Of a stretch of DNA of 64,000 nt, positions 48,989 through 50,346 are shown one piece after another (the first letter of the stretch is position 1; every line of letters starts with the position of its first letter). The DNA comes from a phage. Location of the stretch: sequence record PZ583738.1; one strand, given 5' to 3'. Below the pieces are notes generated by a model that saw only the letters and a list, made by a program, of their open reading frames with translations, did no database searches and was not told the origin of the DNA. The position numbers were made by a program, and so were the translations under genes.

Positions 48989-49328
48989 TCTTGCATCACA
49001 TGTTTATCAATTGGCTGAATATGATATTGGTGCCAGTTTATTATTAGGGATTGTCACCGCCATGCTTGGCGGTTTGGTTGGTCTGGTAATGACCACGGTT
49101 ATGGCTGCAATCGAGGGAGTCATGCCTATTGATATGGGCTTCTTTATGATAATTGCTCCGGCTGTTGTGGCTTATTTTATCCCTGTTGTGTATGATATCT
49201 GTCACACAAACGCCTTGAATGCTCCTAGTCGGAAGAGATATGCTTCAGCAATGGCTGAGTATAATAAGTTCCTAGACAAAACAAAACGTAATGACCTTGA
49301 AACCTTTATTAAGGAATGTAAATCATGA
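48975..49328 (+). CDS. small membrane protein
   Basis: Start at ATG MERPSLASH after RBS AAGGAGG; hydrophobic helices; ends ...ETFIKECKS. Confidence 0.5.
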   Translation: MERPSLASHVYQLAEYDIGASLLLGIVTAMLGGLVGLVMTTVMAAIEGVMPIDMGFFMIIAPAVVAYFIPVVYDICHTNALNAPSRKRYASAMAEYNKFLDKTKRNDLETFIKECKS

Positions 49329-49615
49329 ATAAAATTGAAATTGCTATCCCCAAGTATTATGATGAAAAATCTGCAGAAAAAGCTATCTATTCTCTTCTAA
49401 ATAAGACCTCTGAAATTGAAAAACACTGCGAAGAAATCGCAGATGAATACGGTATCCAATTCGGTACCGGTGATTATGGTTCAGGCCGTACATATTATCC
49501 TGTCGGTTATGAATGCTCCAAGTGGTTTAAAGATGAAATTGAAAACAACGGCGGCGAAGTTGAAAACGGTGTCGTTACAGTTGGTGCTTGGGTCTCCTCT
49601 TCGGCAATGTGCTAA
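49325..49615 (+). CDS. small protein ending in W-V-S-S-S-x-x-C
   Basis: 96 aa; ATGA-coupled start; C-terminal GAWVSSSAMC encoded by a repeated 3-prime DNA cassette. Confidence 0.5.
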   Translation: MNKIEIAIPKYYDEKSAEKAIYSLLNKTSEIEKHCEEIADEYGIQFGTGDYGSGRTYYPVGYECSKWFKDEIENNGGEVENGVVTVGAWVSSSAMC

Positions 49616-49624
49616 GGAAACTCT

Positions 49625-49906
49625 ATGATGAATGATTACCGTAAAAATAAAGAACTGGCTAACGCAGTAAATGACATCCATAAAGCTATTCGTCGTGCCG
49701 AGGAAATTGCAAACAAATATGAGACTCATTTTAATATATACCCTGCTCGCGGTATGGGCGGTGACTATTATTCTCCTGGCGCCCTGAAAGCCGACCTTGC
49801 TCATTGGGAAGAACATGGCCATCCTGAATGGGCTATTGTTAATACTCATGACTATACAACTGACCTGGAAAAAGGCGGTTGGGTGTCCTCCTCTTCTGAA
49901 TGTTAA
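49625..49906 (+). CDS. small protein ending in W-V-S-S-S-x-x-C
   Basis: 93 aa; RBS TAAGGAA upstream; C-terminal GGWVSSSSEC. Confidence 0.5.
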   Translation: MMNDYRKNKELANAVNDIHKAIRRAEEIANKYETHFNIYPARGMGGDYYSPGALKADLAHWEEHGHPEWAIVNTHDYTTDLEKGGWVSSSSEC

Positions 49907-49914
49907 GGAATGTT

Positions 49915-50112
49915 ATGTCTCGTGAATTAGATTGTGCAATCCGTACTGCTGCGGCAGCTATTGAAAACGTTATCCAGATTTGCAAAGAAGAACGCGAAGA
50001 AGCTGATATCTATATCGATGGTGTTCGTGACCTAGAACGACATATCACGCTTTATAATGGTTGTATTACAATTAGTGGTACCTCTTGGGTGTCCTCCTCT
50101 TACGAATGCTAA
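49915..50112 (+). CDS. small protein ending in W-V-S-S-S-x-x-C
   Basis: Start at ATG MSRELD after RBS TAAGGAA; C-terminal TSWVSSSYEC. Confidence 0.5.
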   Translation: MSRELDCAIRTAAAAIENVIQICKEEREEADIYIDGVRDLERHITLYNGCITISGTSWVSSSYEC

Positions 50113-50121
50113 GGAATAAAA

Positions 50122-50346
50122 ATGTCTGATATTAATGAATTAGAAAAAGCAGCACTTGAACTGGCTGCATTGTATAAGAAAGTAAAAGATATGGCTAACG
50201 CTCAAGATTTCGGTATTGAGCTTGACGAATATGATGGTGAGGTTCGTCTCGAAGACTGGTTGTACAGCTCTTGCTATGGCGAAGACGCTGGTCGCACCTT
50301 TGTTGCTCAACCTGACGGTAAAATCTGGCACCCGAGTAGCTGCTAA
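50122..50346 (+). CDS. small acidic protein ending in ...WHPSSC
   Basis: 74 aa; RBS TAAGGAA upstream; degenerate version of the same C-terminal motif. Confidence 0.45.
   Translation: MSDINELEKAALELAALYKKVKDMANAQDFGIELDEYDGEVRLEDWLYSSCYGEDAGRTFVAQPDGKIWHPSSC

Follow-up and report, generated by a model that had tools for sequence, protein, structure and literature searches.

A conserved C-terminal tail on tandem small acidic proteins is linked to an uncharacterised phage nucleotidyltransferase

Nucleotidyltransferases (NTases) of the DNA polymerase beta (pol-beta) fold can act on a hydroxyl side chain of a protein partner, as in the MNT-HEPN (MntA/HepT) and GlnD/GlnE systems; MntA/HepT and GlnD nucleotidylylate their partner proteins. 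The described systems nearest to the locus reported here are the MenAT and AbiE pairs, in which the toxins MenT1, MenT3, MenT4 and AbiEii are encoded with upstream antitoxins, one of which, MenA1, is only 68 amino acids (aa) long. MenA1 blocks MenT1 at its cleft (PMC10435456), the substrate cleft of MenT is electropositive (PMC7450476), and MenT-type enzymes are reported to be able to move phosphate onto an active-site Ser or Thr (PMC11375011). We analysed 64,000 nucleotides of a T4-like phage (sequence record PZ583738.1; this whole stretch is referred to as the window), in which four small genes, here p1 to p4, lie in tandem upstream of a gene for a probably active NTase with the domains DUF7277 and DUF7275. 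The four small proteins share a C-terminal ending, W-x-x-S-S-(x-x)-Cys.

This locus resembles the MenAT and AbiE pairs in several respects: the small partner genes immediately precede the enzyme gene in the same orientation, the NTase folds are alike, and the partners are acidic where the MenT clefts are electropositive. It also differs from them. Unlike MenT and AbiEii, the enzyme has no DUF1814 signature (Pfam AbiEii; motifs III and IV) and no sequence match in the PDB, and its C-terminal domain, DUF7275, is larger, extremely conserved, and without a clear structural match. Instead of a single partner there are one to six paralogues, which carry invariant Cys-terminal tails and are unrelated to MenA1 and AbiEi. 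Finally, the module is found almost only in virulent phages and not in bacterial chromosomes.

A shared ending on four small proteins

The phage belongs to the Straboviridae (Tevenvirinae, Gaprivervirus); at 94-96% identity, this region matches T4-like coliphages of the VR7 / vB_EcoM_RZ group as well as Yersinia phage P8. All four small genes are on the plus strand. p1 (49325-49615) is an open reading frame (ORF) for a small acidic protein of 96 aa (type A; isoelectric point (pI) 4.5) that contains GDYGSGRTYYP and ends in GAWVSSSAMC; p2 (49625-49906) encodes a small acidic protein of 93 aa (type B) that contains ARGMGGDYY and ends in GGWVSSSSEC. The 65-aa product of p3 (49915-50112) ends in TSWVSSSYEC, and its ATG at 49915 is supported by orthologues that begin MSRELD. 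The 74-aa product of p4 (50122-50346; type D) has the short motif twice, internally as W-L-Y-S-S-C (50257-50274) and terminally as W-H-P-S-S-C (50326-50343); this double-motif architecture is kept in other genera, including a Phapecoctavirus. A sequence-only reading of this DNA had pointed out the four same-strand ORFs and their endings, and the coordinates and translations agree with ours. No other ORF in the window ends in the motif.

To tell constraint on the protein from constraint on the DNA, we gathered related loci, 141 in all, from phages in GenBank, from IMG/VR and from genome contigs. The last eight codons of the family members were listed for the window together with the first 52 loci, and a second time for close relatives of the window. 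Of the 263 distinct family members, 228 have the exact ending W-x-x-S-S-(x-x)-C, and Cys is the last residue of 256. The same columns, W, S, (S) and C, are invariant in two independent alignments, and the variable positions are the residue adjacent to Trp and the two residues ahead of Cys. The invariant serines are encoded across lineages by all six codons (TCT, TCC, TCA, TCG, AGT and AGC), the stop codon can be TAA, TAG or TGA, and what follows can be TAAGGAA-ATG, a start codon that overlaps the E-M-C codons, or a long spacer. Because the ending is kept while the serine codons vary freely (TCN/AGY), selection acts on the peptide, W-x-x-S-S-(x-x)-Cys-COOH, and not on the DNA. One of two proposals in the sequence-only reading, a functional C-terminal tag with an invariant terminal Cys, is therefore supported, with W, S, S and the terminal C invariant or nearly so.

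Some uncultured phage contigs (L024 413-3421; L120, L124 2506-5537) have five family members upstream of the enzyme gene and one more downstream of it. Their tails are degenerate (...GWEGSAC, ...GGWYSSHC and ...GWQPSAGTC) and show how far the motif can vary: Ser-Ser is relaxed, but Trp and the final Cys persist.

The other proposal was that a DNA cassette, repeated at the 3' end of each gene, serves recombination or translational coupling and that the peptide is incidental. The repeat is real between p2 and p3. The p2 tail codons, stop and TAAGGAA junction for p3 (49880-49910, plus strand) match the 31-nt pattern exactly and serve as our reference copy; the corresponding p3 segment ahead of p4 (50086-50116, plus strand) has 2 mismatches to the pattern, and together they form a 33-nt direct repeat of 91% identity. 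The two tails have the rare synonymous codons GTG TCC TCC TCT in common (P ~4.5e-4 under genome codon usage), and two precise gene losses, described below, map to the tail plus TAAGGAA. As had also been claimed, the stop codons of p1 to p3 lie within TAAGGAA; we place this 5-9 nt ahead of the next ATG.

The cassette does not, however, recur at every 3' end. The p1 tail codons (W-V-S-S-S-A-M-C), stop and TAAGGAA junction for p2 occupy 49589-49619 on the plus strand, and this copy (compared over 49588-49620) is only 70% identical to that of p2, with the synonymous differences GTC / TCT / TCG, so that even within the window p1 and p2 differ at the synonymous sites of 3 of their 4 common V-S-S-S codons. 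The end of p4 has no copy of the repeat and no TAAGGAA. When the 64 kb were searched for the 31-nt pattern with up to 3 mismatches, only the p2 and p3 copies were returned (at 49880 with 0 mismatches and at 50086 with 2), and shuffled sequence gave zero matches; the window thus has no further copies. TAAGGA followed by ATG occurs at 12 sites in the window, unrelated genes included, and is therefore the ordinary stop/Shine-Dalgarno (SD) junction of this genome. Predicted folds of the RNA at the three junctions are no more stable than those of shuffles (z +0.3 to +1.5), which leaves SD sequestration or another RNA structure unsupported, and there is no consistent promoter match within the repeats.

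Comparison with relatives also weighs against the cassette. The codons at the invariant positions vary freely outside the clade, orthologous tails drift independently inside it, and many relatives have other junctions (ATG overlapping E-M-C, TAG or TGA stops, long spacers). The motif is kept in about 260 distinct proteins of many phage lineages despite varied codons and junctions, which does not support its being a by-product of such an element. The DNA cassette as the cause of the motif is largely refuted, and we give it very little credence. It is instead a side effect of eight constrained codons, the usual TAAGGA junction and local homogenisation of p2 and p3.

This homogenisation extends throughout the VR7/JS10 group, where the same codon sharing between p2 and p3 is seen with one synonymous difference. 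We rejected concerted evolution of the tails within genomes, since orthologous tails drift independently: p3 has GTA TCA in the relatives L059 and L060, while p2 stays GTG TCC. We read the codon sharing as an old, clade-limited local homogenisation and not as continuing concerted evolution.

Copy number also changes in this clade. In relatives of the VR7, VR20, VR26 and JS10 types, a fifth member (...GFWF[NST]SSMSC) stands between p3 and p4. This member is missing from the window and from phages RZ and P8, and the p3 tail of the window runs directly into the junction that elsewhere follows the fifth member (TGCTAAGGAATAAAAATGTCTG). Similarly, in the QL01-type genome L056, which lacks p3, the p2 tail is joined to the junction normally found after p3. 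Both changes are precise deletions across 7-10 nt of TAAGGAA/TGCTAAGG microhomology. The one real consequence of the repeated DNA ends is, then, microhomology for the precise gain or loss of array members; the ends are recombination substrates as a consequence of their similarity and not as its cause.

The bodies of the small proteins are related to different degrees. Products of p1, p2 and p4 are demonstrable paralogues of one PHROG family, phrog_899, which they match over their full length (E = 5e-23, 9e-20 and 2.3e-9, respectively), and p1 and p2 align end to end (BLASTP E = 3e-4). The earlier impression that the sequences upstream of the tails are not obviously related thus stands for p3 only, which belongs to phrog_4882 (E = 2.4e-36). 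Full-length homology with no recurrence of the cassette elsewhere is essentially the result, simple tandem duplication, that the sequence-only reading had said would refute it; what survives of its cassette is a weaker version, with the tails and TAAGGAA as microhomology and p2 and p3 homogenised. Its observation is partly confirmed and its interpretation partly supported.

A family hidden Markov model (HMM) matches all four window proteins (p1 with E = 4.7e-23). A profile built from the four and searched against 1.84 billion representative proteins returned 43 matches, about 40 of which are proteins of 68-143 aa matched through their last residue, with W, S and the terminal C invariant. Three long matches (P0010, P0029 and P0049) were discarded as spurious, being repeat, tetratricopeptide repeat (TPR) or integrase proteins. 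The consensus consists of a long helix ending in AE-x-IADE-x-G-x-x-F-x-F, the motif (A/E)YGMGGTYY, an acidic Trp/Tyr-rich stretch and the tail G-x-W-V-S-S-S-x-x-C. The 263 distinct members are strongly acidic (median pI 4.4, net charge -8). No Pfam, NCBIfam or PADLOC model matched the small proteins, and their only matches among PDB sequences were designed helical proteins, which we dismissed as spurious, so that no relative was found there. Types resembling p1, p2, p3 and p4 are each retained across several genera, which argues for non-redundant bodies with a common tail.

An AF2 model of p2 (pLDDT 89.8) has a helix at residues 9-32, a hairpin at 35-49 that holds the GMGG-YY motif, and a second helix at 51-63. 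A final strand, 84-88 (G-G-W-V-S), joins the hairpin; the invariant S89-S90 lie where the strand exits, and the last 3 residues are of low confidence. In this model, the last beta-strand is thus made by Trp and the residues that directly follow, and the terminal x-x-Cys is predicted to be flexible. We take the array to be a tandem set of long standing whose products are small, acidic and folded.

The RB69 record has two ORFs in place of a single p1 orthologue (L003 2989-3295, RB69ORF139c + ORF138c), the first of which ends in ...IVSQWYEK without a tail. The close relative PNJ-6 has one intact 101-aa gene at this position, and the split orthologue in RB69 is probably a frameshift or pseudogene.

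Linkage to a DUF7277-DUF7275 enzyme

The main clue to function, which the sequence-only reading had missed, is the gene downstream. Starting from the small genes, we found the enzyme gene directly downstream on the same strand in 37 of 40 IMG/VR loci, in all 12 GenBank loci and in the window; the three IMG/VR exceptions are truncated contigs. In every untruncated locus, the enzyme gene is immediately preceded, on its own strand, by between one and six genes of the family. Starting from the enzyme, sampled independently, we found at least one family member upstream in 76 of 80 loci.

The linkage also holds across divergent enzymes. We grouped 130 of them at 60% identity into 30 lineages, over which the small family is a recurrent neighbour; the only other is a DnaB-type helicase in 7 of the 30, and we found no third component conserved with the module. 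The contexts include a position beside nrdD in Aeromonas phages, a Phapecoctavirus and jumbo-phage contigs of 350-370 kb. The protein collection holds 1,925 detectable relatives of the enzyme, which is present in 732 phage records. Among 185,579 bacterial and archaeal species, each represented by one genome, there were only 5 matches, all on contigs of metagenome-assembled genomes (MAGs), so the module has essentially no bacterial homes. These results show that the small genes and the downstream DUF7277-DUF7275 gene form a conserved, phage-restricted two-part module, and that what the small genes have in common at their ends is a feature of the protein, linked to this enzyme, and does not stem from a DNA cassette.

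The linkage bears on a further explanation, that these are independent host-takeover proteins, for example acidic nucleic-acid mimics that inhibit host enzymes, with a tail that serves folding or stability and an enzyme gene that is adjacent through inherited synteny. Known phage DNA mimics are acidic proteins, and so are the members of this family; Trp and the next residues form a core beta-strand in the p2 model; and the genes lie in the hyperplastic early region e.3-e.2, which is unfilled in T4 itself. Inherited synteny, however, does not account well for a linkage that persists over 30 enzyme lineages and in unrelated neighbourhoods where other synteny is lost. Nor is an invariant last Cys, re-created at the new terminus of the extended p4, easily explained by folding alone. 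We consider this explanation unlikely.

The enzyme gene (50631-51596, plus strand) encodes 321 aa, with an N-terminal NTase domain, DUF7277, and a highly conserved helical domain, DUF7275; homologues across lineages are about 300 aa long, and a Pfam scan at E <= 1 returned these two domains only. In an alignment of 34 diverse homologues, G6-S7 is nearly invariant and D25, D27 and E69 are invariant, corresponding to pol-beta motifs I/II (hG[GS], [DE]x[DE]) and the third acidic residue. K125 is also invariant or nearly so, as are many closely spaced His, Asp, Cys and Glu residues of the C-terminal domain. K125, about 100 residues after the DxD, may correspond to K137 of MenT1, which it resembles by position only. 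The fold is that of a bi-lobed NTase like the solved MenT structures: the closest solved structure is the tRNA-modifying toxin MenT1, and the nearest solved relatives as a group are the MenT/DUF1814 tRNA-modifying toxins and the aminoglycoside nucleotidyltransferases. The enzyme is a pol-beta-type nucleotidyltransferase that is probably active. We name it a nucleotidyltransferase with a MenT-like fold and not a member of the MenT family, since it matches neither DUF1814 nor any solved chain by sequence.

Within DUF7275 (residues ~120-305), 50-59% identity is kept between phages whose N-terminal domains barely align. Its invariant residues include H128, H174, H194, H198, D187, D193, D195, C243 and C272, and the pattern SHR...HP...YDHDxIH recalls a metal site or an HD-type motif, an idea for which Pfam and structural comparison gave no support.

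Shorter, distant homologues of the enzyme (~250-265 aa) occur in Streptomyces, Gordonia, Vibrio K408 and KVP40-like phages, without Cys-tailed genes. They are adjoined by an often overlapping acidic ORF of ~100-125 aa that ends in ...EVxPxQKxIT.Y (L138 3630-3968; L139 2765-3145; L140 3614-3979; L141 2306-2602), and these ORFs may represent another family of partners. The enzyme gene adjoins a tRNA cluster in Gordonia phage BrutonGaster and is near an RNA ligase gene in Streptomyces phage Annadreamy.

Roles considered for the tail

The explanation that fits best, and to which we assign a probability of roughly 60%, is that the peptide-selected tail on the tandem acidic proteins is a common handle that engages the enzyme, with the DNA repeat as a side effect. 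We infer that the tail is the common element by which small proteins with differing bodies meet the enzyme. The exposed Ser-Ser...Cys end would enter the active-site cleft, one of the tail serine hydroxyls would receive a nucleotidyl or phosphoryl group from the enzyme, and the variable acidic bodies would give different downstream specificities.

Several points weigh against the handle explanation. The body of p3 is not demonstrably homologous to those of p1, p2 and p4, at least by sequence: compared without its tail to the type-B family profile, it gave a non-significant hhalign E of 0.099 (the helix aligned in the expected register), so that tail and layout are the only common features. Trp and the next residues are structural in the p2 model, so tail conservation may partly reflect folding. 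Of the 80 enzyme loci, 4 (L077, L098, L100 and L107) have no family member nearby, which inspection of these four bore out. The tail is not universally required by the enzyme superfamily, since the distant homologues pair with a different acidic ORF. Finally, the MenT analogy is limited by a moderate fold score and the missing DUF1814 sequence match; a profile of the enzyme compared with PDB sequences (E <= 10) matched neither MenT1, MenT3 or MenT4 nor another NTase or any other chain.

As to what the handle does, an acceptor role for Ser-Ser is the most likely version in our analysis, with a non-covalent plug or adaptor as close alternatives. We prefer the acceptor role for three reasons. Several non-redundant paralogue types are kept across genera, which would not be needed for one inhibitor; in the extended p4 type, the motif appears anew at the new end of the protein; and MenT-type enzymes are reported to phosphorylate protein Ser/Thr (PMC11375011). 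Other pol-beta NTases nucleotidylylate partners. The MNT-HEPN and GlnD/GlnE systems, where the NTase acts on the hydroxyl side chain of a protein partner, are a precedent for this mechanism. Their acceptor is a Tyr in the HEPN RNase or in PII/glutamine synthetase, whereas the acceptor proposed here is Ser-Ser, and, unlike MNT-HEPN partners, the small proteins have no detected HEPN or other Pfam domain.

Taken in full, the acceptor role would make this a phage system of post-translational modification, in which a MenT-like NTase modifies the tail Ser-Ser of a set of acidic effectors by nucleotidylylation or phosphorylation, so switching or targeting them; we put this forward as a tentative proposal. 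The modification would switch the small proteins on or off, or target them, during host takeover. A modified Ser may also undergo elimination followed by attack of the terminal Cys, giving an S-x-x-C thioether ring.

Such a ring has a counterpart among ribosomally synthesised and post-translationally modified peptides (RiPPs): in epidermin-type lanthipeptides, S-x-x-C-COOH ends form aminovinyl-cysteine (AviCys) rings. Like RiPP arrays, the locus has tandem small genes ahead of one conserved enzyme gene, and an invariant Ser stands three residues before the C-terminal Cys. Unlike RiPP precursors, the products are folded domains of 60-100 aa (pLDDT ~90), and the conserved part is C-terminal and not a leader. 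No known RiPP enzyme family was found nearby, nor any Pfam or NCBIfam RiPP match; the NTase is the only recurrent neighbour of the small genes.

Alternatively, the small acidic proteins may act like antitoxins that bind and block the NTase non-covalently, the tail thiol and carboxylate plugging an active site that contains metal. In that case, the phage would carry the module as a toxin and antidote or as a timing device. The order of the genes, small gene and then NTase, is that of the menA-menT and abiEi-abiEii pairs (PMC10435456, PMC7450476). MenT1 is also the nearest structural neighbour of the enzyme, and acidic proteins would suit the electropositive clefts of the MenT enzymes (PMC7450476). 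On the other hand, a single inhibitor would do, and yet one to six distinct paralogue types are kept as orthologues across genera; toxin-antitoxin systems, unlike this module, are not virtually absent from bacteria; neither MenA1 nor AbiEi showed homology to the small proteins, and PADLOC gave no matches; and some enzymes are without any family member nearby. We therefore hold an antitoxin-like role to be rather doubtful. The acceptor role remains our preferred version of the handle explanation.

Surroundings of the array and wider meaning

The array is flanked on one side by a homologue of T4 e.3 (48975-49328), whose stop overlaps the start of p1 (ATGA), and on the other by the enzyme gene, and the e.2 / nudE / lysozyme / denV block is further downstream. 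RB69 carries this block of additional ORFs as well (ORF139c-132c), as an insertion that separates e.3 from e.2. In the window, tRNA-Met(CAT) and tRNA-Arg(TCT) are found at 44220-44372, ~5 kb upstream of the array, as in the tRNA/e.x region of T4; their relevance to a MenT-like, possibly tRNA-directed enzyme is only circumstantial.

Directly after p4 is a spacer (50350-50421, plus strand) at which gene content differs among close relatives. It begins with a potential hairpin, TATCACA-AGGA-TGTGATA (50350-50367), followed by an early-promoter-like site of the T4-early type (50393-50421; GTGTACA...TATCAT), and other T4-like relatives have GTTTACA shortly past their arrays. Its predicted fold is not significantly more stable than shuffles (50350-50421, z = -1.1). 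PeSLs (promoter-early stem-loops), the described elements that come nearest to the DNA side of the array, are mobile regulatory cassettes of T4-type phages, intergenic composites of stem-loop terminator and early promoter (PMC2839356, PMC4122927), and the spacer may be a PeSL-type terminator/promoter element where gene content varies. The array itself is like a PeSL in having short repeated DNA at gene boundaries in a hyperplastic T4-like region, with insertions and deletions between close relatives. It is unlike one in that the repeat consists of a coding 3' end with stop and SD, has no significant stem-loop, and is alike from copy to copy because the peptide is constrained.

Between the array and the enzyme gene, a 55-aa ORF (50450-50617; phrog_20278) is flanked by a perfect 21-nt direct repeat, ACTAATGAGGAAAATATTATG, that comprises stop, SD and start (50432-50452 and 50613-50633). 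P8 has the 55-aa ORF at this position, and phage RZ has a different ORF of 75 aa. This repeat looks like a genuine DNA-level insertion or duplication junction.

Public records misname these genes. The P8 record (L002, Yersinia phage vB_YenM_P8, 3776-6389) has 'tail completion protein' and 'major capsid protein' for the small ORFs, 'head outer capsid protein' for the e.3 homologue that directly precedes them, and 'baseplate hub subunit' for the enzyme, which is a 'prohead assembly scaffold protein' in the records of Klebsiella phage VAC36 and Escherichia phage vB_EcoM_005. A few Acinetobacter phage records name it 'putative nucleotidyltransferase'. The capsid, tail and baseplate names are evidently wrong. 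The literature that we searched makes no mention of DUF7275, DUF7277 or these PHROG families, and neither component of the module has a described function.

For annotation, our analysis corrects the view of the repeated ends as a DNA cassette. The tag at the C-terminus is genuine and of ancient origin, and its genes are linked to that of a phage nucleotidyltransferase so far uncharacterised. At least 732 sequenced phage genomes have the module, among them those of well-studied T4 relatives such as RB69 and of phages used in therapy. A terminal Cys after Ser-Ser on several proteins, beside an apparently active NTase, makes for a sharply testable hypothesis. If the tail is indeed modified, this could be a new kind of phage protein modification, or else a new means of controlling a MenT-like tRNA-modifying enzyme; it would also be a module of one enzyme and multiple substrates of a sort not described for any virus.

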